Below, in pieces: positions 15,599 to 48,504 of a stretch of DNA of 64,000 nt. The notes below the pieces were generated by a model. It was not told the DNA's origin and did not search any database. It saw nothing but the letters and a program-made list of their open reading frames with translations. A program made the translations under genes and the position numbers. Source of the stretch: a virus (lineage: Duplodnaviria > Heunggongvirae > Uroviricota > Caudoviricetes); the IMG/VR virus record IMGVR_UViG_3300032241_002220, positions 25,376 through 89,375 of that record. The stretch is one strand, 5' to 3'. Numbering within the stretch: the stretch's first letter is position 1; each line of letters opens with the position of its first letter.

Positions 15599-16918
15599 AT
15601 GAATAAATTAGATAAACAATACCAAGCATTACTCCAAGACATCTTAGATAACGGAGTTAAAAAAACTGACCGCACAGGAACTGGTACTATATCAGTTTTT
15701 GGAAGACAAATACGTCACAAAATGAGTGATGGGTTTCCTTTACTTACAACAAAGAAAATGTACTTTAAAGGAATTGTAACTGAACTATTGTGGTTCTTGC
15801 AAGGTGATACAAATATTAGGTACCTTATAGATAATGGTAATACTATATGGGTAGGAGATGCTTATAAAAATTATTGTAAATTTGAACATTATAATCCTGG
15901 AACGATTATAAAATCTGATGAAAATGAGTTTGAAAGAGAAGTTATAAAGGTTGATTTAACTCAAGACGAATTTATCAACAAAATCAAAACCGATGATGAA
16001 TTTGCTAAAAAATGGGGTGAATTAGGTCCTATATATGGTGCACAATGGAGAAATTGGACTAAATTTAAAGAATATAAAGATGCTTTTGAAGTAGATATTT
16101 TAGAAGAAAATGAAGATTCAATTTCATTTTCAATGGGTACTAGTGGAATGGTTTATAAAATAGACCAAATCCAAAATCTTATTAATGACCTTAAAACAAA
16201 TCCAGATTCAAGAAGATTAATGGTTAATGCTTGGAATGTAGGTGAGTTAGACCAAATGGTTCTTCCACCATGTCATTATGGCTTTCAAGTTTATACAAGA
16301 GAGTTGAGTTTCGAAGAAAGGTGTGATTATGCCATAAAAGCAGGATGGATGTCTCCTTTGGGTGCGTTTGATTTTCCAGAAACACATTACGCATTGGATG
16401 CCTCAAAAACCCCTAAACGAGCAATCTCCCTCATGTGGAATCAACGTTCAGTAGATACATTCTTAGGTTTACCGTTCAACATCGCTTCGTACGGTTTGTT
16501 ACTTGAGATCATTGCTAAAATGGTTAACATGGTACCAGATGAACTCATAGGCAATCTCGGAGACACACACCTATATCTTAACCACATCGAACAGGCAAAG
16601 GAGCAAATCGGTAGAAAGATTTCAATAGATGAAAGAATATCTTTACTAATAAAAGCAATGGGTTATGAATCATATAAAGATGCTGTTTCAAATTTAATAC
16701 CATTTGGTGGTGGTATGAGCGAGTATTTCGAATCGTTTAAAATACCGTATTATACAAGAGAACCATATTCATTACCAAAATTGGTTCATGGTAAAACAGA
16801 TGCCTTTTATAAAACTTTATCTGAAGATTTATCTCTGTTTGGGCATTTAGATCCTGAAAATTTCACTGTGGAGAATTACCAGTCCCATCCAGCAATTAAA
16901 GCACCACTAAGTAATTAA
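15599..16918 (+). CDS. thyA: thymidylate synthase family protein with large insertions
   Basis: 439 aa. DRTGTGT, FPLLTTKK, ELLWFLQGDTN, PPCHYGFQ, LGLPFNIASYGLL and C-terminal HPAIKAPL are all present, but about 50, 30 and 45 aa insertions relative to canonical ThyA. Confidence 0.85.
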   Translation: MNKLDKQYQALLQDILDNGVKKTDRTGTGTISVFGRQIRHKMSDGFPLLTTKKMYFKGIVTELLWFLQGDTNIRYLIDNGNTIWVGDAYKNYCKFEHYNPGTIIKSDENEFEREVIKVDLTQDEFINKIKTDDEFAKKWGELGPIYGAQWRNWTKFKEYKDAFEVDILEENEDSISFSMGTSGMVYKIDQIQNLINDLKTNPDSRRLMVNAWNVGELDQMVLPPCHYGFQVYTRELSFEERCDYAIKAGWMSPLGAFDFPETHYALDASKTPKRAISLMWNQRSVDTFLGLPFNIASYGLLLEIIAKMVNMVPDELIGNLGDTHLYLNHIEQAKEQIGRKISIDERISLLIKAMGYESYKDAVSNLIPFGGGMSEYFESFKIPYYTREPYSLPKLVHGKTDAFYKTLSEDLSLFGHLDPENFTVENYQSHPAIKAPLSN

Positions 16919-22337: not shown

Positions 22338-23171
22338 ATGATATTAAACCTAGCATATCCTGAAGATTCTCAGGTAAATTTTCAAATATCTCAATTTCCA
22401 GATGGGCAACAATCTTTAACTATCCTTTCAGGTGTAGGACCTGAGGATTGTATTATTATAGGTTCCCATTTAAATTCATTTAAAGATTTAGAATTAATAA
22501 TCTGTGCCAATGTGGCTTTAAAAGAAATGGGAGTTAAAAATATTGAATTGTATGTTCCTTATTTTCTAGGTGCTCGTTCAGATAGGAAATTTGGTGAAGG
22601 TGGATTTAACTATTTAAAAACTGTTATTTGCCCTATAATCAATTCTCAAAATTTTAGTAAAGTAATAGTTTTAGACCCACATTCAGATGTACTTGAGGCT
22701 TGCTTAAATAATTTTGAAAAAAGAAGCAATATAGGAGTTGTATCTCATGCTCTTCAAGGCATTGATGCTGAAAAAGAAGATACAGTAATTATATCTCCTG
22801 ATGCCGGTGCATTAAAAAAGATATACGATATTGCTAAGGTATTTGACTTACCAAATGTAATTACAGCAGGTAAGGTTAGAGATATTCCAACAGGTAAAAT
22901 ATTAAAAACTGAATTGCCTAATATTACTCAATTTGAAGGTAAGAAATTCCTTATCATAGACGATATTTGCGATGGAGGTAGAACGTTTATTGAACTAGCG
23001 AAAGCAATTAAAGAACAACTCCCTGATGCTGAATGTTATTTATGTGTTACTCATGGTATTTTTAACCAGGGATTTGATGAATTATCAACTTATTTTAAAA
23101 AAATCTATTGTACAAATAGTGTAAAAGATTTTAATTGGAAACCTTTTATTAATCAACTAAATGTATTTTAA
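22338..23171 (+). CDS. ribose-phosphate pyrophosphokinase-like (PRPP synthetase family)
   Basis: 277 aa. YVPYFLGARSDRK resembles the Prs PYFGYARQDR motif. FLIIDDICDGGRT is a PRPP-binding loop. Confidence 0.6.
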   Translation: MILNLAYPEDSQVNFQISQFPDGQQSLTILSGVGPEDCIIIGSHLNSFKDLELIICANVALKEMGVKNIELYVPYFLGARSDRKFGEGGFNYLKTVICPIINSQNFSKVIVLDPHSDVLEACLNNFEKRSNIGVVSHALQGIDAEKEDTVIISPDAGALKKIYDIAKVFDLPNVITAGKVRDIPTGKILKTELPNITQFEGKKFLIIDDICDGGRTFIELAKAIKEQLPDAECYLCVTHGIFNQGFDELSTYFKKIYCTNSVKDFNWKPFINQLNVF

Positions 23172-23657: not shown

Positions 23658-25202
23658 ATGTTTAAACCAGTTAGTTTATTTTACACAGACGGATATAAGA
23701 TTGGCCACAAGAAAATGTTAGCCCCAGGAACTACAAAATTATATGGTACTTGGATTCCTCGTAGCACAAAATATGCTCCTACCGGTGTTACAAAAATAGT
23801 ATCGTTTGGTCAACAGCTTGTAGTTCGTTGGTTAAATGATGAGTTTACAGAACATTTTTTCAACCAACCAAAATCAGTAGCAACCCAATTTGGTAAAGAT
23901 ATGTCAATGTATCTTGGAATGGATTATGATGCTACCCATTTTGAAGCACTTCATGATTTAGGTTATTTACCTATTCGAATCAAAGCATTACCAGAAGGTA
24001 TTGAAACATTACCTAATGTTCCTCATATGACATTCATCAATACAGTAGATGGTTTTGCGTGGTTAACTTTATATTTGGAAACGATTATATCTTCATTAGC
24101 TTGGAAACCTTCAACATCAGCCACTATTGCTCTACAATATCGTAGGAATTTAGTTCAATGGGTTATGAAAACAGATCCGGCTAACGCGTGGTTGATTCCT
24201 TTCCTCGCACACGATTTCTCTGCTCGTGGTTTATCTCCTTGGGACATGTTATCAAGCGGTTTAGGACATGCTACTTCGTTTAGAGGTTCTGATACCATTA
24301 TTTGTATTCCTGGTGCTCGTTATTTTTATAATGAACCTGAAAATGAAGTTTGTATCAATTCGGTAAATGCTTCTGAACATAGCGTTTCAACAACTAAAAT
24401 CTTTACAGTTGGTGAACAACAAATGATTGCAGATTGGTTGGTTGATTTTCCTAAAGGAATATTATCAATTGTATCAGATACGTTTGATTTGTGGAAGTTG
24501 ATTACCGAATACTTACCTGCAAACAAAGAAGCAATCATGGCTCGTGATGGTAAGTTGGTTATCCGTCCTGACTCTGGTGATCCGGTTGATATTATTTGTG
24601 GGTTAAACACTAAAACTAAGGTTGAATATTTTCAAAATGCTGATGCTCCAGATGTTAAAGGTGTAATCGAATTACTTTGGGAAATCTTCGGTGGTACAAT
24701 CAACGAACAAGGTTACAAAGTTCTTGATCCACACATCGGAGCCATTTACGGTGACTCAATTACATTGGAACGTCAAATTCAGATTTATGAAAGGTTAGCG
24801 GCTAAAGGTTTTGCTTCAACTAATATTGTACTCGGTGTTGGTTCTTATACATACCAAATGAATACTCGTGATACTTTAGGTTTTGCTGCTAAAGGTGCCT
24901 GGTTTGAAGTTGAAGAAGAATACGATGCCACTCCAGAAGAACATGGAGAACCAGTTGTTGATTTTTATATACCTGGATTTAATAAAATAGGTTACGACAT
25001 CTACAAAGATCCAGTAACCGATTCAGGTAAAACAAAGAAATCTTTGAAAGGTCTTATCATGGTAGATGAAAATCTTGAAGTACACACCCAATGTACACCT
25101 CAACAAGAGGCTCAAGGTTTATTACAAACCATTTATATGGATGGTAAATTCTACAATCAAACAACATTAACTGAAATTCGCGCTAAACTTGAAAAGCTAT
25201 GA
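23658..25202 (+). CDS. nadV: nicotinamide phosphoribosyltransferase
   Basis: 514 aa. N-terminal LFYTDGYKIGHKKM...TKLYGTWIPRS matches the NAMPT/NadV signature. Size fits. Confidence 0.8.
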   Translation: MFKPVSLFYTDGYKIGHKKMLAPGTTKLYGTWIPRSTKYAPTGVTKIVSFGQQLVVRWLNDEFTEHFFNQPKSVATQFGKDMSMYLGMDYDATHFEALHDLGYLPIRIKALPEGIETLPNVPHMTFINTVDGFAWLTLYLETIISSLAWKPSTSATIALQYRRNLVQWVMKTDPANAWLIPFLAHDFSARGLSPWDMLSSGLGHATSFRGSDTIICIPGARYFYNEPENEVCINSVNASEHSVSTTKIFTVGEQQMIADWLVDFPKGILSIVSDTFDLWKLITEYLPANKEAIMARDGKLVIRPDSGDPVDIICGLNTKTKVEYFQNADAPDVKGVIELLWEIFGGTINEQGYKVLDPHIGAIYGDSITLERQIQIYERLAAKGFASTNIVLGVGSYTYQMNTRDTLGFAAKGAWFEVEEEYDATPEEHGEPVVDFYIPGFNKIGYDIYKDPVTDSGKTKKSLKGLIMVDENLEVHTQCTPQQEAQGLLQTIYMDGKFYNQTTLTEIRAKLEKL

Positions 25203-25597
25203 AAGAACAATTTGTTACATACGAAATAGCTATAATCTTAAAAGAAAAAGGGTTTAATGAAGATTGTTTAGGTGTATATATCGATAAAGAATTAACTATA
25301 GGTTTACCGGAAACTACATTAAATGTAATTACTAAATATTATGATATTCTTGAAAAAGAAGAATATTTATTAGCTCCATTATGGCAACAAGCAATTGATT
25401 GGTTTAGAGAAAAACATCGTTTTATTATAACTATAGATTTTTTAAACAAACAAGAATCATTACACCCTAACGATCCAGAATGGACATCAGAATTATATAA
25501 TATGGATAACTTTCATTATATCATAGCTGAATACGATAGATACTCATACGAAGACGCAAGACAAGTAACTATTGAACATGCCTTAACATTGATTTAA
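25199..25597 (+). CDS. hypothetical protein
   Basis: 132 aa ORF. Confidence 0.45.
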   Translation: MKEQFVTYEIAIILKEKGFNEDCLGVYIDKELTIGLPETTLNVITKYYDILEKEEYLLAPLWQQAIDWFREKHRFIITIDFLNKQESLHPNDPEWTSELYNMDNFHYIIAEYDRYSYEDARQVTIEHALTLI

Positions 25598-25662: not shown

Positions 25663-26799
25663 ATGGAAAATAACAATAGCGTTTGCTTCATAGCAAAAAT
25701 AAACGAAATAAAAGAAATACCGGGAGCCGACAATATCGAACAGGCAATGGTAGGCAACTGGTCTTGCATCATCAAAAAAGGAGCTTATGCTGAAGGTGGT
25801 TTAGTGGTTTGTGCTACTACAGACGCTGTTATACCTGAAGACTTGGCCGAAAAGATGAACGTAACAAACTACTTACGTAAGGGCAACCGTGTGCGTACAG
25901 TAAAGCTTCGTGGTGTTTATTCCGAGTGTTTGGTTATACCTTTTGAAATCGGAGACGTTATGACTAAAGACGAGTTACACGAAGGTAAAGACATGATGGC
26001 TATATTGGGTATTATAAAGTTTGAACCTCCCGTAAAGCAAATTCAACTCGCTTCAGGTAAAAAGATACGCTATAGTGAAAATCCAAATTTTCATATATAT
26101 TATAAATTTCCAAATCTTAAAAACGTATCATGTATGTTTACAGAAGAGGACTCGGTTCAAATCACACGCAAGATACACGGCACTTCATCTAGGTATGGTA
26201 TAGTGAAAAAGAATAAATTATCTTTTTGGGATAAATTCAGAAAGTTCTTTAGGATAGCTAATGAATGGATTGATTACGAGTTTGTAGTAGGTTCACATAA
26301 CGTTGAAAAGGGATCCGATTCTCAAGGTTTCTATGATACAAATGTTTGGTATGAAATAGCCAACAAATATAAGATCAAAGAAAAGCTTTGGGATTATGTA
26401 AAAAAGTATATGTCTTTAGAAGAACTAGGTTCTGGTGTTGTAATATATGGTGAAATCTATGGAGCCGGTATTCAAAAGGGTTATGATTATGGTCTTAAGG
26501 ATATTCAATTTGCTGGATTTGATGTTATGGAAAATGGGCAATATTTGAGTGCATTTAATACTCTTCTTGTTTTAAAATGTATGATAGATTTACCTCATGT
26601 CCCTGTATTATACGATGGTCATTGGTCTCAAGAAATTCAAGATAAGTATGTATTTAATAACTTTATTGAAGGTACAAAAGTACCACACGAAGGTATTGTT
26701 ATCAAGCATACTTCAGGTAATCGTTTTAAAGTCGCAAAAGTGATTAATCCAGACTATTTAATTTATGGAGAAAAACATGATATAGGAGACTCACACTAA
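25663..26799 (+). CDS. Rnl2-family RNA ligase
   Basis: 378 aa. Nucleotidyltransferase motif I RKIHGTSSRYG (T4 Rnl2 has EKIHGTN). GEIYGAGIQKGYDYG parallels Rnl2 GEFAGPGIQKNVDY. Confidence 0.75.
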   Translation: MENNNSVCFIAKINEIKEIPGADNIEQAMVGNWSCIIKKGAYAEGGLVVCATTDAVIPEDLAEKMNVTNYLRKGNRVRTVKLRGVYSECLVIPFEIGDVMTKDELHEGKDMMAILGIIKFEPPVKQIQLASGKKIRYSENPNFHIYYKFPNLKNVSCMFTEEDSVQITRKIHGTSSRYGIVKKNKLSFWDKFRKFFRIANEWIDYEFVVGSHNVEKGSDSQGFYDTNVWYEIANKYKIKEKLWDYVKKYMSLEELGSGVVIYGEIYGAGIQKGYDYGLKDIQFAGFDVMENGQYLSAFNTLLVLKCMIDLPHVPVLYDGHWSQEIQDKYVFNNFIEGTKVPHEGIVIKHTSGNRFKVAKVINPDYLIYGEKHDIGDSH

Positions 26800-35413: not shown

Positions 35414-35737
35414 ATGAAAAAACTTATACTAATACCGTTATTGGCTTTATATTCCAGTATTCAAGCCCAGTGTGTGGTTGCTTTACCAACGGCTTTTACG
35501 CCAAATAAAGATGGTTTAAATGATACTTTTAAAGCCATTGGAAGTGGTTATATAGTTCACGATTTTATTATCTTTAACCGTTGGGGAAACAAGGTGTTTG
35601 AATCAACAAACAATATGGGTTGGAATGGTGTAACCAATGGAATAGAACAAGATCCGGGTGTATATATGTACTATCTAGTGTATGATTGTAATGGTGAGGA
35701 AAAATATATAAAGTCAACAGTAAATCTAATTCGATAA
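35414..35737 (+). CDS. secreted protein with T9SS/gliding-motility C-terminal sorting domain
   Basis: 107 aa. Signal peptide. FTPNKDGLNDTF...IFNRWGNKVFEST...WNG matches the Bacteroidetes type-B CTD motif. Confidence 0.55.
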   Translation: MKKLILIPLLALYSSIQAQCVVALPTAFTPNKDGLNDTFKAIGSGYIVHDFIIFNRWGNKVFESTNNMGWNGVTNGIEQDPGVYMYYLVYDCNGEEKYIKSTVNLIR

Positions 35738-42029: not shown

Positions 42030-42102
42030 GGTGCCTAAGCTAATCTGGTGAAAGCGCTAGACTGAAAATCTAGAGAGATAGGGTCGAAACCTATAGGTAC
42101 CA
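42030..42102 (+). tRNA. tRNA-Phe (GAA)
   Basis: Acceptor GGTGCCT/AGGTACC. Anticodon stem CTAGA/TCTAG with loop CTGAAAA. Confidence 0.75.
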
Positions 42103-42172
42103 CAAAAACATAAAAATGAAACGAAAACAGTAACGCCGCTCTGAAATACGAGTGGCATAATAGAAATAAAAT

Positions 42173-42245
42173 GCGCTCGTAGCTCAATTGGTAGAGTAGC
42201 TGGCTTTTAACCAGCGGGTTGTAGGTTCGAACCCTACCGGGCGCA
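42173..42245 (+). tRNA. tRNA-Lys (TTT)
   Basis: GCGCTCG...TAGCTCAATTGGTAGAG. Anticodon stem GCTGG/CCAGC, loop CTTTTAA. T-arm GTAGGTTCGAACCCTAC. Confidence 0.85.
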
Positions 42246-42263
42246 CTTAAAAATATAACACAG

Positions 42264-42338
42264 ACGCGTGTGTAGCTCAATTTGGTAGAGTGTCGGTCTC
42301 CAAAACCGAAGATGAGGGTTCGAGTCCCTACATGCGTG
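42264..42338 (+). tRNA. tRNA-Trp (CCA)
   Basis: Anticodon stem TCGGT/ACCGA, loop CTCCAAA. T-loop TTCGAGT. Confidence 0.8.
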
Positions 42339-42345
42339 CAAGATT

Positions 42346-42418
42346 GCCTTCATAGTTCAATGGATTAGAACACTTGGCTACGGACCAAGAAATAGGAGTT
42401 CGAATCTCTTTGAAGGTA
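42346..42418 (+). tRNA. tRNA-Arg (ACG)
   Basis: Acceptor GCCTTCA/TGAAGGT. Anticodon stem CTTGG/CCAAG, loop CTACGGA. Confidence 0.8.
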
Positions 42419-42423
42419 CAAAA

Positions 42424-42496
42424 GGTCAAATGGCCGAGATGGCGTAGGCGTATGTCTGCAAAACATACCACAACAGTTCGAATCTGTTTTTGACCT
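42424..42496 (+). tRNA. tRNA-Cys (GCA)
   Basis: Acceptor GGTCAAA/TTTGACC. Anticodon stem TATGT/ACATA, loop CTGCAAA. T-arm AACAGTTCGAATCTGTT. Confidence 0.8.
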
Positions 42497-42506
42497 CTTA
42501 AAAAAA

Positions 42507-42560
42507 ATGTTTGGCTACCTAAAAAAACAGTCGTACATTTAAGTATAAGAAGATCTTTGA
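42507..42560 (+). promoter_or_regulatory. tRNA-array internal promoter (TTTGGCTACCTAAAAAAACAGTCGTACATTTAAGTATAAGAAG)
   Basis: Same -33/-7 architecture, 20 nt 5' of tRNA-Pro. Confidence 0.55.
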
Positions 42561-42579
42561 CATATTGGGATTAATTCAA

Positions 42580-42656
42580 TCGAGAGGTCGGGCAGATGGT
42601 TATACCCGCGTGCTTTGGGAGCACGATATCGCTGGTTCGAATCCAGTTCTCTCGAC
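42580..42656 (+). tRNA. tRNA-Pro (TGG)
   Basis: Acceptor TCGAGAG/CTCTCGA. Anticodon stem CGTGC/GCACG, loop TTTGGGA. T-loop TTCGAAT. Has its own promoter-like motif upstream. Confidence 0.75.
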
Positions 42657-42663
42657 ATAAAAT

Positions 42664-42738
42664 GGGCTGGCATGTTCCAAGGCTTGGCGATTCTCCTTTG
42701 CACGGAGAGTGTGAAGAGTTCGATTCTCTTCTGGTCCA
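42664..42738 (+). tRNA. tRNA-Ala (TGC), atypical D region
   Basis: Anticodon stem TCTCC/GGAGA, loop TTTGCAC. T-arm AAGAGTTCGATTCTCTT. The acceptor needs 3 G-U pairs. Confidence 0.5.
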
Positions 42739-42743
42739 CATTC

Positions 42744-42814
42744 AGTCCCTTAGCTCAACGGAAGAGCGCTTGTTTTACATGCAAGAGGCTGTGATATCGT
42801 AATTCACAGGGACT
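42744..42814 (+). tRNA. tRNA-Val (TAC)
   Basis: Acceptor AGTCCCT/AGGGACT. D-arm GCTC..GAGC. Anticodon loop TTTACAT. T-loop ATCGTAA. Confidence 0.7.
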
Positions 42815-42891
42815 ACTCATGGTTTATTAGTATACAATGTCAATCATAGGAACTAATATTGGAGTTATACCAATTAAAAAATATAACAAAC

Positions 42892-42963
42892 GCAGATATC
42901 GTATAGCGGTTATTACTCTGGTCTTCCAAACCGGAGACGTCGGTTCGATTCCGACTATCTGCT
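42892..42963 (+). tRNA. tRNA-Gly (TCC)
   Basis: Acceptor GCAGATA/TATCTGC. Anticodon loop CTTCCAA. T-arm GTCGGTTCGATTCCGAC. Confidence 0.85.
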
Positions 42964-42968
42964 CTTAT

Positions 42969-43041
42969 AGTCCAATGATGTAACTGGCAACATGGCGTGT
43001 TTTGAGCTCGCTCTTCTAGGTTCGAATCCTGGTTGGACTAC
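42969..43041 (+). tRNA. tRNA-Gln (TTG)
   Basis: Acceptor AGTCCAA/TTGGACT. D-stem ATGT/ACAT. Anticodon loop TTTTGAG. T-arm CTAGGTTCGAATCCTGG. Confidence 0.75.
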
Positions 43042-43045
43042 ATTT

Positions 43046-43135
43046 GGAAGCATAGCCTAATTGGTAAGACAGCAGTCTTGAAAACTGCCGTGTCGGTGAT
43101 GAATCGGCTTATAGGTTCGAGTCCTATTGCTTCCG
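43046..43135 (+). tRNA. tRNA-Ser (TGA), class II
   Basis: Acceptor GGAAGCA/TGCTTCC. Anticodon stem GCAGT/ACTGC, loop CTTGAAA. About 22-nt variable arm. T-arm ATAGGTTCGAGTCCTAT. Confidence 0.85.
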
Positions 43136-43488
43136 CTAAAATAAACTAGACACTGTAAAAACCAGTGGTTGACTTAATAACTATAGGAGTAATTACCTAT
43201 GTATGCGAACAGCAATTAATCCTGACAGCAATGTTTATTTTAATATGGGTCTTTAAGCTTTAAGGTGAAGCGCATGTTTGTGGAGCATGAGAACTCGGTT
43301 CAATACCGTGATGGACCCCAACAAGGAAAGTAAAGCAACGAGGTTGTTGCCACCACCTGCTAAGTGAGTGGATCATTAAATTGATTGTGTTTCGACTACA
43401 CTGCTTTCCGCGAAATCCAATGTGTGCTGCTGCTAGCCGGAGACACAAAACAGAAGTGAAGGAACTGTTCCACATTTGGATTTTTATT

Positions 43489-43561
43489 GGAGATATAGTA
43501 GAATGGTTCAGCACACCTGTCTGATACGCAGGTAATCCAAGTTCGAGTCTTGGTATCTCCA
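43489..43561 (+). tRNA. tRNA-Ile (GAT)
   Basis: Acceptor GGAGATA/TATCTCC. Anticodon loop CTGATAC. T-arm CCAAGTTCGAGTCTTGG. Confidence 0.8.
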
Positions 43562-43571
43562 CTTATAAATT

Positions 43572-43644
43572 GGACTTGTAGCTCAGAGGCAGAGCAGGCG
43601 GCTGTTAACCGTCAGGTCGGTGATTTCGAAATTCCCCAAGTCCG
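43572..43644 (+). tRNA. tRNA-Asn (GTT), degenerate T-arm
   Basis: Acceptor GGACTTG/CAAGTCC is perfect. D-arm GCTC..GAGC. Anticodon loop CTGTTAA. T-stem pairs poorly (GGTGA TTTCGAA ATTCC). Confidence 0.55.
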
Positions 43645-43651
43645 CAAAATT

Positions 43652-43740
43652 GAGAGTAAGGTAACTATTGGTTGGTTATCAACGGCTGTAACCCGTCAGG
43701 CCCAGAAAGGGGGTAGGTTCGATTCCTACTACTCTCACCA
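43652..43740 (+). tRNA. tRNA-Tyr (GTA), class II, CCA encoded
   Basis: Acceptor GAGAGTA/TACTCTC followed by A-CCA. Anticodon loop CTGTAAC. Variable arm CCCAGAAAGGG. T-arm GTAGGTTCGATTCCTAC. Confidence 0.75.
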
Positions 43741-43761
43741 AAATAAAAAAACTTCTTAAAA

Positions 43762-43820
43762 AGAGGTTGGCTTATAGAAATCTTGTTCGTATATTTAGGT
43801 ATAAGAAAAAAGATAAGAAG
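43762..43820 (+). promoter_or_regulatory. tRNA-array internal promoter (TTGGCTTATAGAAATCTTGTTCGTATATTTAGGTATAAGAAAAAAGATAAGAAG)
   Basis: After tRNA-Tyr, before the second tRNA sub-cluster. Confidence 0.5.
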
Positions 43821-43835
43821 CTCTTTGAAAATATT

Positions 43836-43910
43836 GAAACTGTGGTAATAAGTTGAGTTACTTCGTATGGCTTATATAAAATGAACTCACTTAAGCATTC
43901 CCGGTTAAAA
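43836..43910 (+). repeat. conserved hairpin element copy 1 (GTAATAAGTTGAGTTACTTCGT ... AACTCACTTAAGC)
   Basis: A near-identical 22-nt arm recurs at 44622. Stem AAGTTGAGTT/AACTCACTT. Confidence 0.5.
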
Positions 43911-43941
43911 TCATTTAGGTGGTTAATTAGAAAGTTACTTC

Positions 43942-44015
43942 GCACGAATAGTTCAATGGTTGAACATTTTCATATCCAGAAAAAGTAACGGGTTCAATTC
44001 CCGTTTCATGCCCCA
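43942..44015 (+). tRNA. tRNA-like gene with non-standard anticodon loop ATATCCA (anticodon ATC?), CCA encoded
   Basis: Acceptor GCACGAA/TTCATGC (one C-A mismatch) + C-CCA. Canonical D-arm TAGTTCAATGGTTGAAC. Anticodon stem TTTTC/GAAAA. T-arm ACGGGTTCAATTCCCGT. Confidence 0.45.
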
Positions 44016-44067
44016 AAAAAACTTTCTTAAACATTCCCCTAAACTTATTTGATGAATAGTAAGGACC

Positions 44068-44145
44068 AGCGTTACTTCGCGTGCAAGGTGCACATTTAAA
44101 TTTGGCTTTTAAAAATCGCGGTTCAATTCCGCCTGAAACGCTACC
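44068..44145 (+). ncRNA. degenerate tRNA-like element ending in ACCA
   Basis: T-arm GCGGTTCAATTCCGC and a terminal ...GAAACGCTACCA. 5' AGCGTTA pairs with AAACGCT, but the D/anticodon region (GTGCAAGGTGCAC hairpin) does not fold as a tRNA. Confidence 0.3.
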
Positions 44146-44168
44146 AATGTTCTTTCATCATTTTTTAT

Positions 44169-44241
44169 GTTCCTGAGGACAAAATGGTTGAGTCGTCACC
44201 CTTTCAAGGTGAAGGAGCGGGATCGTTACCCGTCAGGAATA
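44169..44241 (+). tRNA. tRNA-Glu (TTC)
   Basis: Acceptor GTTCCTG/CAGGAAT (one G-U). Anticodon stem TCACC/GGTGA, loop CTTTCAA. T-arm GCGGGATCGTTACCCGT. Confidence 0.7.
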
Positions 44242-44247
44242 CAACAA

Positions 44248-44318
44248 GGTCTATTAGTGAATTGGTATCATATCTCACTGTCTATGAGAAGTGCTCGGAT
44301 CGTAACCGTGATAGACCG
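44248..44318 (+). tRNA. tRNA-Asp (GTC)
   Basis: Acceptor GGTCTAT/ATAGACC. Anticodon stem TCTCA/TGAGA, loop CTGTCTA. T-loop ATCGTAA. Confidence 0.7.
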
Positions 44319-44327
44319 CCAACAAAT

Positions 44328-44400
44328 GCTTCTATAGCTCAATGGTCAGAGCAGGACGCTTATATCGTCAAGGCTACAGGTTCGAGTCCTGTTAGAAGTA
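44328..44400 (+). tRNA. tRNA-Ile (TAT) (AUA-reading, UAU anticodon)
   Basis: Acceptor GCTTCTA/TAGAAGT. D-arm GCTC AATGGTCA GAGC. Anticodon loop CTTATAT with U33 and A37. T-arm ACAGGTTCGAGTCCTGT. Confidence 0.65.
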
Positions 44401-44417
44401 CTAAAAACAAAAATAAA

Positions 44418-44609
44418 ATGAAAAAAATAGTAATCTACAAAGATGTAGAAAATGTAAACGGTAAAAAAGAACGTCATATTCTTCGTTCAATCCAGCCTAG
44501 TTATGATTGGCAAGGATATGCGAAAAATAAAAACAGTATGATAGATTCTGAAGTTAGGAATTTAGCACGTGCTTTAGAACCTAGTTTTACAGGATTCTAT
44601 GTAGCATAA
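44418..44609 (+). CDS. hypothetical small protein
   Basis: MKKIVIYKDVENVNGKK... The track ORF 44184..44609 starts inside tRNA genes, so it is trimmed to the first ATG after tRNA-Ile(TAT). Confidence 0.4.
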   Translation: MKKIVIYKDVENVNGKKERHILRSIQPSYDWQGYAKNKNSMIDSEVRNLARALEPSFTGFYVA

Positions 44610-44621
44610 AGATATTTGCTG

Positions 44622-44690
44622 TAGTAATAAGTTGAGTTACTTCGTCTGACTTTTTAATTCATAAATGAAAAAACAACTCACTTAAACTTT
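44622..44690 (+). repeat. conserved hairpin element copy 2 (GTAATAAGTTGAGTTACTTCGT ... AACTCACTTAAAC)
   Basis: Second copy, upstream of the tRNA-Met/Thr/Arg/Leu sub-cluster. Confidence 0.5.
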
Positions 44691-44712
44691 CTCAGTAAAC
44701 TTATTTTAAAAT

Positions 44713-44787
44713 TGTGGGATGCGTAGAAAATGGTTATCTCGTCAGTCTCATAAGCTGAAGTTCCCGGTTCAAGTCCGGGTCCCGCAA
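44713..44787 (+). tRNA. tRNA-Met (CAT)
   Basis: Acceptor TGTGGGA/TCCCGCA (one G-U). Anticodon stem TCAGT/GCTGA, loop CTCATAA. T-arm CCCGGTTCAAGTCCGGG. Confidence 0.7.
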
Positions 44788-44911
44788 CATAAGTCCTTGA
44801 TCAGGAACCGAAGATATGGTCGGCCTCTTGTGTAAACAATGCACACTGCTACCATCTAAACCGTAGGTTAGCACAGTTCACAACTCTGGGGATATTTTAA
44901 AAGTTGTATTT

Positions 44912-44986
44912 GGACGCATAGTTTAGTTGGAAAAACACTTGCCTTGTAAGCATGAGTTCTCGGGTCGGTTCCGGGTGTGTCCTCCA
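44912..44986 (+). tRNA. tRNA-Thr (TGT), CCA encoded, unusual T-loop
   Basis: Acceptor GGACGCA/TGTGTCC + T-CCA. Anticodon loop CTTGTAA (stem has one U-U). T-arm CTCGG GTCGGTT CCGGG. Confidence 0.6.
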
Positions 44987-44991
44987 CGCAT

Positions 44992-45064
44992 GGTTCTATC
45001 GTTCAATGGATTAGGACAATTGCCTTCTAAGCAATTTATGCTGGTTCGAATCCAGCTAGAACTA
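44992..45064 (+). tRNA. tRNA-Arg (TCT)
   Basis: Acceptor GGTTCTA/TAGAACT. Anticodon stem ATTGC/GCAAT, loop CTTCTAA. T-arm GCTGGTTCGAATCCAGC. Confidence 0.85.
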
Positions 45065-45070
45065 CAACCC

Positions 45071-45152
45071 GCTCCGATGGTGTAATTGGCAGCCACGCTA
45101 GACTTAGGATCTAGTGTCGTAAGACGTAAGGGTTCGAGTCCCTTTTGGAGCA
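45071..45152 (+). tRNA. tRNA-Leu (TAG), class II
   Basis: Acceptor GCTCCGA/TTGGAGC. Anticodon stem CTAGA/TCTAG, loop CTTAGGA. Variable hairpin GTCGTAAGACG. T-arm AAGGGTTCGAGTCCCTT. Confidence 0.8.
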
Positions 45153-45162
45153 CTTAACAAAA

Positions 45163-45248: not shown

Positions 45249-46790
45249 ATGGCACGTTACAATTCAAAAGCAACAACAGTTACTCCAACAGTAACAAACC
45301 ACCAAGGTGGAACAGGGTACAAATACGACCCAAAAACAGAATTAATCTCAATATTAGCAACAGGCTTGGATAACAAGTATTATGAAAAAGTAGGTGAACG
45401 TGAACAACGTTTGGCCAAAGTCATAGAAGAAGTAGCTAAAAAAGACAAACTATTTGCTGCAAAAGCTCTAGTGTATGCTCGTACCGTAATGGGACAAAGA
45501 ACAGTAACACACTTTGGTGCTGTAGAATTAGCTAAAGTATTAGGAGGTGATTCTCTAGGTTCTCGTTTCTTTTCAAAGCGTGAACGTAAACAAAACAAAG
45601 GTGGTATTATCTTCCGTTTGGATGATATGCTTGAAATTGCTGCTTGTTATCAAGCACGTAATGAAGGTAAACCATTTTCAAATGCAATCAAGAAAGGTTT
45701 TAAATCCGCTCTTGAATCAGCAGATGAATATGAATTAGCTAAATATCAAGCTAAAAATCGCGATTTATCTTTAGTTGACATCGTTAACTTAGTACACCCA
45801 AAACCATCACCAAGAATGGCTCCAGTGTTTGCTAAATTGATGAAAGGTGAACTTAAACAGTTTAATACTGTAGAAGATAAAAATACTAAAGCTGGTCAAG
45901 AAGTTGCTGCTAAAGTAAAAGAAGGTAAAATTACTAAAGAAGAAGCAGCAGTTGAATTAGCGCAAGCTAAAGAAGACAACTATGCCGAATTGATTAAAAC
46001 ACGTAAAATCGGTTATTTAGCTTTATTACGTAATTTACGCAATATTCTAAAAACAGGTGCCGATAAAGAAATTATAAACGGTGCTTGTGAACTATTAACT
46101 GATCAAAAGTTAATTAAACAATCTTTAGTGTTTCCACACCAAATAGATTTAGCATTAGAAATAATGTTGGATGAATTTGGTTCAAGTAAAGTTAAACCAT
46201 TTGTTAAAGCATTAAACACCGCTTACGAACTAGCGATACCAAACCTAACAGAATTATTTCCAAATGGCCGCACAGCGGTTGTATTTGACAGTTCAGGTTC
46301 AATGTCAACATCTATTAGTTTAGCTAATAAAAATAATGGTTCAGAATCAGCCATTTCAAAAGCAGCATTAATTGCCGCTACTTTAGCTAAAGGTATTGAA
46401 GCCGATGTTTATCACTTTGCTGATCGTTGTGATGAAATCAAGTTTAACCCACTTGATACAGTTAACACACTTAAGAATCAATTTTTAAATAAACAAGGTT
46501 CAGTTGGTTATGGTACTGCCTTTGCCAGTATTATGAAAAAATTAGGTGATCAATATGACCGTGTGTTTGTAATATCGGATATGCAAGGTAGTGATTATCT
46601 TGAAAGAGCTAATTACAAAAATCTTCACATATATTCAATCGATATTGCCGGTTATGGTACAACAATGTTCAAACCAGGAAACAAAGTTTATTCATTGTTT
46701 GGTTATTCTGCCGATATTTATGAATTGATAAAGAAAGTGGAAATCGATCCAAAAGCGTTAATCGCCGAAATCGAAGCAATAGAAATTTAA
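45249..46790 (+). CDS. rsr: Ro60-like TROVE domain + vWA domain RNA-binding protein
   Basis: 513 aa. N-terminal QGGTGYKYDPKTELISILATGLDNKYYE resembles the TROVE signature. C-terminal TAVVFDSSGSMS is a vWA MIDAS DxSxS. Domain order as in Ro60/Rsr. Confidence 0.6.
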   Translation: MARYNSKATTVTPTVTNHQGGTGYKYDPKTELISILATGLDNKYYEKVGEREQRLAKVIEEVAKKDKLFAAKALVYARTVMGQRTVTHFGAVELAKVLGGDSLGSRFFSKRERKQNKGGIIFRLDDMLEIAACYQARNEGKPFSNAIKKGFKSALESADEYELAKYQAKNRDLSLVDIVNLVHPKPSPRMAPVFAKLMKGELKQFNTVEDKNTKAGQEVAAKVKEGKITKEEAAVELAQAKEDNYAELIKTRKIGYLALLRNLRNILKTGADKEIINGACELLTDQKLIKQSLVFPHQIDLALEIMLDEFGSSKVKPFVKALNTAYELAIPNLTELFPNGRTAVVFDSSGSMSTSISLANKNNGSESAISKAALIAATLAKGIEADVYHFADRCDEIKFNPLDTVNTLKNQFLNKQGSVGYGTAFASIMKKLGDQYDRVFVISDMQGSDYLERANYKNLHIYSIDIAGYGTTMFKPGNKVYSLFGYSADIYELIKKVEIDPKALIAEIEAIEI

Positions 46791-46813
46791 AATTTTCCAA
46801 TAAAGTAAAATGA

Positions 46814-46838
46814 CTGGGTGTTTCTACACCCGGTTTTT
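46814..46838 (+). terminator. rho-independent terminator after the Ro60-like gene
   Basis: CTGGGTG-tttcta-CACCCGG + TTTTT. Confidence 0.65.
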
Positions 46839-47035
46839 ATTTAAAGTTCTTTGAAATATTATACTATAGTAAGGGTTTGTGAGGTACTTCGTATTTATAA
46901 ACTAGCTTAGAAATAAGCATTTTAATTATACACATATCAGATAAAAACCTCGTACTAGGTGCCTCTTGAAAATAACCAACAACAAGAGCAAATAAGTACA
47001 AACTCACCCCAGTAATCTTAGTATATTTTTTTTTT

Positions 47036-47122: not shown

Positions 47123-47584
47123 ATGAAAAAAGCAATTTATCTAGACGACGTCAGAACACCAATCAATGGTGATGTTGAATGGATTGTGGTTAGAAATTAT
47201 AATGAATTTGTATCTAAAGTTCAAGAAATTGGATTGGAAAATATTGATGTAATTTCTTTAGATCATGATCTTGGGGATAGTGCTATGAATGAATATTTTA
47301 AAAATGTTGCTCCTAATTATACTTTGGATTACAATAATATTACCGAAAAAACGGGATATGATTGTGCAAAATGGTTAGTTGAATATTTTTATATAAAAAA
47401 TCCTAATTGGAAATATAAAAGTAGAGATGTTAAACAAGGAAGTCTATTTCGATTTCCAAAAGTATTTACCCATTCAGCTAATCCTATAGGTTCAGCTAAT
47501 ATTATGGGTTATATAAATAATTTTTTAATGAATGAAGTTCAAAGCCAAACCTGTGTAAGAGTTCAAATTCAACACACAATTTAA
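47123..47584 (+). CDS. hypothetical protein
   Basis: 153 aa. ATG 3 nt after tRNA-Leu(TAA). Confidence 0.5.
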   Translation: MKKAIYLDDVRTPINGDVEWIVVRNYNEFVSKVQEIGLENIDVISLDHDLGDSAMNEYFKNVAPNYTLDYNNITEKTGYDCAKWLVEYFYIKNPNWKYKSRDVKQGSLFRFPKVFTHSANPIGSANIMGYINNFLMNEVQSQTCVRVQIQHTI

Positions 47585-48051: not shown

Positions 48052-48052
48052 C

Positions 48053-48448
48053 GGGGTCGACCGGTTTTGACAGCAATTGAAGTAGAGAAAGATGATGCAG
48101 GCAGTGTTAGTATTGGAAACACTTAAATAACCTATACAAACAATAAACGCAAACGTAGAATTATCTACTTGGACAATCGAAGATGCTTTGGCATTTGTAG
48201 ATGGTGAATTCGCACTAGCTGCCTAGTTCACCCAGGGGCTTCACACACGCGCCTTGCAACAGAAGTGTATTTAAAAAGGAACTAAGAGGCTTACCTTTTC
48301 AAAAAAGAGTACTCGGTAGGTTTTCAGTCCCAATCGTCCGAGAAGCGGAACTGGTATTTTGTCTAGTTAGAAAACGAGACTAAGCCTGTGAATGAGTCGA
48401 TTTAGACTTATTGTTTGGACGGGAGTTCGACTCTCCCCGACTCCACAA
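48053..48448 (+). ncRNA. ssrA: tmRNA (ssrA)
   Basis: 5' GGGGTCG pairs with 3' CGACTCC-A. The 3' tRNA-like domain GGACGGGAGTTCGACTCTCCCCGACTCCAC matches the tmRNA TLD consensus. Internal reading frame 48149-48226 encodes ANVELSTWTIEDALAFVDGEFALAA then TAG, the characteristic ...ALAA-stop tag. No overlapping CDS on either strand. Confidence 0.8.
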
Positions 48449-48452
48449 ATTA

Positions 48453-48481
48453 ACACCAACATTTCTGTTGGTGTTTTTTTA
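48453..48481 (+). terminator. rho-independent terminator after tmRNA
   Basis: ACACCAACA-tttc-TGTTGGTGT + TTTTTTT. Confidence 0.8.
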
Positions 48482-48504
48482 TCTTTATTATATATTTATA
48501 TATA

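Follow-up and report, generated by a model that had tools for sequence, protein, structure and literature searches.

Does a tailed phage equipped with a large set of translation genes also carry a ribosome-rescue RNA of its own, and from where did the parts of that RNA come? The question is raised by a locus in a 64,000-nucleotide (nt) stretch of the Caudoviricetes record IMGVR_UViG_3300032241_002220 (positions 25,376 to 89,375 of that record; hereafter the window, numbered from its first letter), in which a phage gene for transfer-messenger RNA (tmRNA, ssrA) had been predicted at 48053-48481 from the letters alone. Genes of this kind have been found in 402 of 18,146 phage genomes, about 2.3 % (PMC9004378). 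The original prediction, which had named ARAGORN and a covariance-model search as checks, is borne out by both: ARAGORN places a tmRNA on the + strand at 48053-48446, and Rfam model RF00023 matches 48053-48448 over its full length (model positions 1-374) with 100.1 bits and an E-value of 6.2e-38, far above chance (gathering score 47). By structural criteria this is an ordinary tmRNA, and the additional findings described below leave that classification unchanged. Taken as a whole, the evidence makes it very probable that the locus encodes a functional one-piece tmRNA of a virulent, myovirus-like Flavobacterium phage, whose expression, processing, partners and benefit we infer from sequence.

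Gene ends, RNA structure and tag frame

The gene extends from G1 to the discriminator A (48053..48445, + strand), as delimited by ARAGORN, RF00023 and the CAAA trailer. Its CCA end is not encoded, the 3' sequence running on as CTCC-A-CAAA. Gene order is colinear, of the RF00023 type, and the permuted two-piece model (RF04321 and relatives) has no match to the window gene, its sole match being an unrelated viral locus (L001; L numbers denote the loci used for comparison). What had been read from the two ends of the gene is also present. GGGGTCG (48053-59) pairs with CGACTCC (48438-44), with the A at 48445; the 3' end, described as a textbook tRNA-like domain, has its T arm GGGAG/TTCGACT/CTCCC at 48421-37; and the strong terminator said to follow is a 10-bp stem (AACACCAACA/TGTTGGTGTT, 48452-48475) with the loop TTTC and then a T run (48452..48480, + strand). 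Likewise upheld is the absence of a protein, as only a 41-aa open reading frame (ORF) and a spurious TTG extension of the downstream gene (its ATG is at 48504) overlap the tmRNA, and there is no credible protein ORF within it.

The 5' half of the tRNA-like domain (48053..48076, + strand) consists of the acceptor strand, an analogue of the D loop and the first part of helix 2a, while the 3' half (TTGTTTGGAC, 48410..48445, + strand) consists of the T arm, the other acceptor strand and the discriminator. The acceptor stem has 7 bp and includes G3.U70, a wobble pair that is an alanine identity determinant; the T arm has a 5-bp stem and a 7-nt loop of the TPsiC type, and adjoins the 3' strand of the acceptor stem; an anticodon arm is absent. 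For comparison, 53 loci, many of which carry tmRNAs, were drawn from an IMG/VR search with the RNaseH-like protein encoded upstream of the window tmRNA. Across 14 distinct phage tmRNAs, the acceptor and T stems pair in 168 of 168 cells, even as eight of the 12 pairs are changed on both sides (four of seven in the acceptor, four of five in the T stem), with G3.U70 invariant. None of 500 shuffles reaches the observed values, and no slid register comes close.

In the long helix 2, which connects the tRNA-like domain with the remainder of the RNA, the proximal pairs (20-25 with 357-363) and helix 2d (CAGGC/GCCUG; CAGGC at 48098..48102, + strand, with GCCTG at 48384-48388) form. Pseudoknots were sought with a simple H-type stem enumerator, since two-pass RNAfold gave nothing informative. 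Pseudoknot PK1 (48103..48137, + strand) is built from stem 1, AGTGTT (48103-08) with AACACT (48118-23), and stem 2, GTATTGG (48110-16) with CCTATAC (48131-37), the latter with one U.U mismatch; 11 nt separate the knot from the resume codon. Each of 15 distinct related tmRNAs has an H-type knot ahead of its resume codon, built from different, compensating sequences; in 13 of them the sequence here departs from that of the window, and the knot lies 8-13 nt from the codon. In the window and L002, an alternative stem 2, 3 nt from the codon, was chosen by the scan, and the one given here was assigned manually by homology. Further along, helix 5 (GGTGAA, 48203-08, with TTCACC, 48227-32; 48203..48232, + strand) encloses the tag end and stop codon. 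It is followed by a candidate PK2 (48233..48268, + strand), with stem 1 CAGGG (48233-37)/CCTTG (48252-56) and stem 2 ACAC (48243-46, or 48245-48)/GTGT (48265-68). Stem 2 covaries across relatives (ACAC/GUGU, GGAC/GUCC, GUAC/GUAC, AGAC/GUCU and GCACA/UGUGC), and PK2 is plausible in the window. The PK3/PK4 region (48269..48383, + strand) holds plausible H-type knots that are single-sequence candidates, and the RF00023 alignment is poor there. Knots PK2-PK4 between tag and helix 2 are common, and not universal, in tmRNAs.

The tag frame (48149..48226, + strand) opens at the resume codon GCA 48149, in the context AAUAAAC-GCA, and runs for 25 codons (ANVELSTWTIEDALAFVDGEFALAA). It closes with GCA CTA GCT GCC TAG, so that the C-terminus is ALAA and the stop lies at 48224-26, just as had been claimed. 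ARAGORN prints a shorter, 15-codon tag (EDALAFVDGEFALAA) starting at GAA 48179, a reading that was set aside in that it starts ~40 nt after PK1 and the codons upstream of GAA are conserved as codons in relatives. In the Rfam alignment, the consensus resume codon falls on GCA 48149, and this placement, the PK1 spacing and the conserved upstream codons in homologues together identify the 25 codons from GCA 48149 as the true frame; in L174 and L166, both close relatives, the long frame is the one that ARAGORN itself gives. The prediction had made its case depend on conservation of the resume codon and frame in related phages, and both are conserved, for example in L002 (ANVELSTWTIEDALAFVDGEAMAIAA), L008 (DELSTMTFDDLMAFVGADYALAA) and L016 (AEELSSFTFEDAMAFVGADYAVAA). 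Differences among the relatives' tags are mostly synonymous or at third positions: Nei-Gojobori pN/pS is 0-0.66 in 15 of 15 group-1 tag pairs (all < 1), and 8, 7 and 20 of 27 tag columns are variable at codon positions 1, 2 and 3, respectively. This pattern of substitution indicates that the full-length 25-codon frame is under purifying selection.

The phage tags in this set have 20-26 codons, with the 10-codon tag of L018 as the sole exception; among bacterial tags, 10 aa is the commonest length (PMC11915505). Long tags may be a phage trait, which is offered as a lead and not as a result. The window tag is ~3 times the length of the host's and is conserved throughout, an indication that its sequence as such is important to the phage, beyond the release of ribosomes.

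Host-like ends, a phage core and exchanged modules

The two ends of the tmRNA point to Flavobacterium. Exact copies of its 3'-terminal 29-mer (GGACGGGAGTTCGACTCTCCCCGACTCCA) are present in 107 bacterial genome contigs, nearly all of them from Flavobacterium/Bacteroidota; in 15 of 18 loci checked (those yielding a Flavobacterium-type gene), the 29-mer ends the host's own ssrA. The Flavobacterium gene is ~396 nt long, has its resume codon at nt 95-97 and specifies the tag GENNYALAA or a one-residue variant. Against it, nt 1-25 of the window tmRNA are identical at 24 of 25 positions, and the last 36 aligned nt, counted through the C after the discriminator, at 36 of 36 (35 nt if the count stops with the discriminator, 48445); CAAA is also the trailer seen most often in Flavobacterium ssrA genes. 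The intervening ~330 nt show background identity to host ssrA and are 95 % identical to the tmRNA of the sister phages L002, L004 and L006. At the junction pair 25-357, the host's G-C has become U-A in the window, a compensatory change. The tmRNA is a chimera, in which a host-type tRNA-like domain encloses a phage-lineage core (PK1, tag and PK2-4). Because acceptor and T pairs vary freely among phage genes, host identity at every stem pair speaks for sequence transfer and not convergence, and the host-identical domain predicts that the host is Flavobacterium. The 29-nt 3' sequence is found, too, at the end of an unrelated permuted viral tmRNA (L001 11507-11726, IMG/VR contig 3300012984_000001) and of a tmRNA with the tag AKKSTTNTVALAA in a metagenome-assembled genome labelled Ruminiclostridium (L110 5481-5835), and so is not exclusive to Flavobacterium.

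A DNA search with the tmRNA against INPHARED phages, distant mode included, gave no match, and no exact copy of the 5' chimera junction was found in IMG/VR or JGI metagenomes. The latter search missed two loci, L168 and L176, because of a single mismatch there. They belong to the lineage of the window and came to light when metagenomes were screened with a 22-mer of the tag, which matched 13 contigs. In both (L168 585-983 and L176 1887-2285, on JGI metagenome contigs), the tmRNA has the host-type domain, the position after the RNaseH-like gene and the terminator as in the window, and the flanking proteins are 98-100 % identical. They differ from the window in the tag end (…VDGDGKAIAA) and in a PK3/PK4a block like that of L171, L175 and L031.

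In the sister loci L002, L004 and L006, the core is 95 % identical to the window's (nt 37-350), and the first 20 tag residues are shared (ANVELSTWTIEDALAFVDGE). The L002-type tag ends EAMAIAA, and the tRNA-like domain is of a phage type (GGGGATG…TTCGG-TTCGACT-CCGAA-CATCTCCA). Loci L008, L016, L018 and L034 also have a phage-type domain, unlike the window. The shared tag core is joined to still other tRNA-like domains, beginning GGGGTCGCC… in L174, GGGCAGG… in L166 and GGGCCCG… in L171, L172, L175 and L177. As a separate observation on the last group (L171 3466-3854, L172, L175 4960-5349 and L177 694-1066), the tag core reads ELSTWTIEDA and the acceptor stem is GGGCCCG/CGGGTCC. Those of its members that were testable with ARAGORN have non-canonical T loops (e.g. 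GGGAG-AGTCGGTG-CTCCC) and are missed by the program; L175 and L177 appear to resume at GTA.

The tmRNA gene also occupies alternative sites. In the window, L168 and L176, it follows the RNaseH-like gene, and in L002, L004, L006, L165, L167, L170 and L173, it lies inside the tRNA array, between tRNA-Tyr and tRNA-Asp(atc). None of the four sequences that cover both sites has a tmRNA at both. The array slot is empty in the window (43741-43941; the L002 counterpart is 639-1074), and L002 5392-5442 is the counterpart of window 48052-48489. Window and L002 are ~98 % identical upstream, and the figure drops to ~81 % precisely where the window tmRNA lies. The two edges of the array insertion are similar over a short stretch, the end of tRNA-Tyr being CTCTCAC(C/A)A and that of the tmRNA ATCTCCACAA. 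One pair of loci, L007 (7828-8137) and L008 (7828-8212), is otherwise identical and differs by a ~75-nt deletion in the tmRNA of L007; the shorter version has no ARAGORN call and scores 81.5 bits with Rfam.

Such distributions indicate that sub-modules of the tmRNA are exchanged between phages. It is possible, though we consider it doubtful, that the tmRNA is a modular device in a stronger sense, its tRNA-like domain being swapped by recombination, in the window for that of the host, to fit the available SmpB, AlaRS and EF-Tu, with a long ELSTWTIEDALAFV-type tag core kept by purifying selection for a polypeptide fate of the phage's choosing. If this were true, the fate that the tag gives to rescued polypeptides, beyond that of the 9-codon host tag, could be recognition by a specific adaptor or protease or a faster recycling of amino acids, and tags as long as 20-26 codons would be typical of phage tmRNAs in general.

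Genome context, proposed role and rival explanations

All genes of the window are on the + strand. The neighbours named in the original prediction, a tRNA array and a Ro60 gene, are present. The array (42030..45153, + strand; ARAGORN and Rfam) has ~22 genes and is followed by the gene for the Ro60/TROVE RNA-binding protein (45249..46790, + strand), a tRNA-Leu gene (47036), a gene for a cyclic-phosphate processing receiver (cRec) domain protein (47123..47584, + strand), known from RNA-repair and NAD-conflict contexts (PMC7824862), and the RNaseH-like gene (PF04308; 47596..48051, + strand) upstream of the tmRNA. Downstream of the tmRNA are genes for a sigma-like protein and the baseplate (gp25-like and Baseplate_J). 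Elsewhere in the window are genes for a PRPP synthetase-like protein (22338-23171), an NAPRTase (23658-25202) and an RNA ligase (25663-26799), as well as a thymidylate synthase and glycosyltransferases. The combination of tRNA, Ro, cRec, RNA-ligase and NAD-salvage genes has been described as a counter-defence kit that keeps translation alive in large phages (PMC7824862). A host among the Bacteroidota is indicated by an ORF with a CHU_C type IX secretion domain (35414-35737), and the closest relatives in culture, at ~32 % protein identity, belong to the immuto group of Flavobacterium phages. No integrase family was found among the 58 window ORFs scanned against Pfam. The locus is in the genome of a myovirus-like phage that looks virulent, and is not a prophage border. 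A prophage-border or attP reading was tried and rejected, because phage sequence lies on either side and the scanned ORFs include no integrase. Nor does the locus look like an ssrA-targeting integration module, given the full-length tmRNA and, again, those integrase-free ORFs.

Several side observations concern these neighbours. The array includes unusual tRNAs, with a tRNA-Asp of anticodon AUC beside a normal GUC copy and a tRNA-Ile(UAU), and three further tRNA-like genes detected by Rfam only; the coordinates of these members are 43942-44015 and 44328-44401, and 42030-42102, 44169-44241 and 44720-44787. Near the tRNA arrays of relatives are GOLLD RNAs (239-327 bits) and a group I intron (60.7 bits), neither of which is in the window; these loci, listed together, are L009 and L010 3418-3844, L022 999-1408, L009 2181-2380 and L010 2314-2513. 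For Ro60, no Y RNA partner had an Rfam match near threshold (the best that YrlA offered was 22 bits, where 69 are needed, and at another place), and the spacer between Ro60 and tRNA-Leu (46791-47035) folds no better than shuffles (z -1.1). The thymidylate synthase (15599-16918; 439 aa) has a Pfam match in which residues 6-342 cover profile positions 1-227, and this spread suggests a large insertion.

From this context and the gene itself, the following course can be proposed. Just 1 nt lies between the stop codon of the RNaseH-like gene and the tmRNA 5' end, which makes co-transcription of the two probable, and RNase P would release the 5' end at G1. After trimming of the 3' end, CCA would be added by the host enzyme, as for host ssrA, because neither the phage nor the host gene encodes it. 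The tRNA-like domain, being so close to the host's own, would be accepted by host AlaRS (through G3.U70), SmpB and EF-Tu, and the tmRNA would enter ribosomes stalled on broken or non-stop mRNAs. Such stalls should abound when mRNAs and tRNAs are cleaved in the course of infection or by host defence nucleases. Translation would resume at GCA 48149, add a tag of 26 residues (the charged Ala plus ANVELSTWTIEDALAFVDGEFALAA) and stop at UAG, whereupon the ribosome would be freed and the C-terminal ALAA would mark the peptide for proteolysis. The tmRNA would in this way form part of a translation-maintaining phage toolkit, together with the tRNA array, Ro60, cRec and RNA ligase.

A number of results weigh against this account. 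No promoter dedicated to the tmRNA was recognised. The middle of helix 2 is irregular and poorly paired, and RNAfold favours a local hairpin in its 3' strand; for the candidate knots PK3/PK4, variation among relatives is uninformative, L002 and L174 being nearly identical there and L168 and L176 carrying a different block. These two regions are the weak points of the structural case. The sister phages, which are ~98 % identical, use a quite different tRNA-like domain, from which it follows that host identity is not strictly required and that any benefit of the chimera is hypothetical. Finally, tblastn with E. coli SmpB and phage SmpBs found no SmpB in the 64-kb window (the E. coli query was validated by its matches in L021, L024 and L044), so that, to function, the tmRNA needs SmpB from the host or from a gene that lies beyond the window. 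More distant relatives have a SmpB gene (PF01668, E 1e-47 and 7e-41; L024 6456-6899, L021 6441-6893 and L044 7205-7597) directly after the RNaseH-like gene, which is the slot of the window tmRNA, and its presence at this locus shows that the lineage invests in trans-translation. The window phage, the rest of whose genome is unseen, probably relies on host SmpB, and the host-identical tRNA-like domain fits this. In a side observation on the same relatives, tRNA genes with the anticodon CUA, of the amber-suppressor type (ARAGORN label tRNA-Pyl), are present at L021 8048-8122, L024 8063-8137 and L053 7605-7677; such tRNAs occur in SmpB-carrying relatives and in mycobacteriophage Bxz1 (L179 10436-10508).

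A tRNA-like domain that the host machinery accepts might also serve to obstruct that machinery. The RNA would then be a decoy, titrating SmpB, AlaRS and EF-Tu and shutting down host trans-translation without rescuing ribosomes. The host-identical domain and the lack of a SmpB gene in the window suit this idea, for which there is precedent in reported phage molecules that consist only of a tRNA-like domain and inhibit tmRNA (PMC4131195, PMC11915505), as proposed for mycobacteriophage DS6A. A decoy needs no message, yet PK1, AAUAAAC-GCA, the selected 25-codon frame, the stop within helix 5 and ALAA have all been kept, which leaves the decoy very unlikely. Scarcely better placed, and if anything a little worse, is the view that the locus is a passenger or relic, i.e. 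host ssrA sequence acquired through recombination, imprecise excision or attP-like homology and without a role in translation. The 3' ends of ssrA genes are indeed frequent integration sites, and fragments of them are found in prophages (PMC9004378, PMC11915505), and the 35 host-identical nt at the 3' end speak for this view as well. However, the gene is full length, its 5' end is host-like too, its core, shared and conserved by phages, does not derive from the host, its tag is under selection, and it sits in a genome that resembles a virulent myovirus and lacks an integrase among its 58 scanned ORFs.

The meeting of host-like and phage-like segments within one gene might also be suspected of being an assembly artefact, host ssrA and phage tmRNA reads having been merged by the metagenome assembler. 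This is scarcely credible. The host-like stretches are just 24 and 36 nt, flank the core on both sides and run directly into phage genes; identical junctions and flanks recur in L168 and L176, which are independent contigs from different samples with point differences of their own; and the junction pair 25-357 has undergone a compensatory change from G-C to U-A. A functional one-piece tmRNA remains much the most probable reading of the locus.

Relation to known tmRNA systems

What rises above the routine at this locus is the host/phage chimerism, the shuffling of modules together with alternative sites, and a long tag that is conserved from end to end. Phages that are nearly identical combine one message module with either of two tRNA-like domains, host-identical or phage-type, and do so at two genomic sites, which amounts to a natural experiment, and distant relatives that add their own SmpB at the same locus offer a further handle on the role of phage tmRNAs. 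The kit of tmRNA, tRNA array and Ro60 is already known in Bxz1, and the window does not present a new kind of system.

Several relatives and analogues help to place it. Flavobacterium ssrA shares with the window gene the one-piece architecture, the length of ~396 nt, the resume codon at nt 97, a CCA end that is not encoded, a tag ending ALAA and a near-identical tRNA-like domain, but the sequence inside helix 2 is unrelated and the host tag has 9 codons (GENNYALAA) against 25 in the phage. tmRNAs are carried by cluster C mycobacteriophages (PMC4131195), among them Bxz1, whose tmRNA (73.9 bits) lies inside the tRNA array and has a 25-codon tag (ATDTDATVTDAEIEAFFAEEAAALV), and which also encodes Ro60. 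Bxz1 thus has in common with the window a one-piece tmRNA, a large tRNA array, Ro60 and the tag length; it differs in infecting another host phylum, in having no sequence relationship and in a tag that ends ALV instead of ALAA. A similarity between the two tags (7 of 25 residues ungapped, ~3.4 being expected from composition) was considered and not taken to be significant. Huge phages carry tmRNA together with SmpB (PMC7162821), and tmRNAs are documented in phages of flavobacteria, with Cellulophaga phage Calle as an example (PMC8776804). Like these and the two-piece tmRNA of Melnitz, the window gene is a phage-borne rescue RNA of a sort that is often host-related and has been proposed to sustain hijacked translation (PMC7162821, PMC9004378, PMC8776804). 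In comparison with them, it is one-piece and unpermuted, with no riboswitch detected and no SmpB in the window, and it is a host/phage chimera and not a wholly captured host gene.

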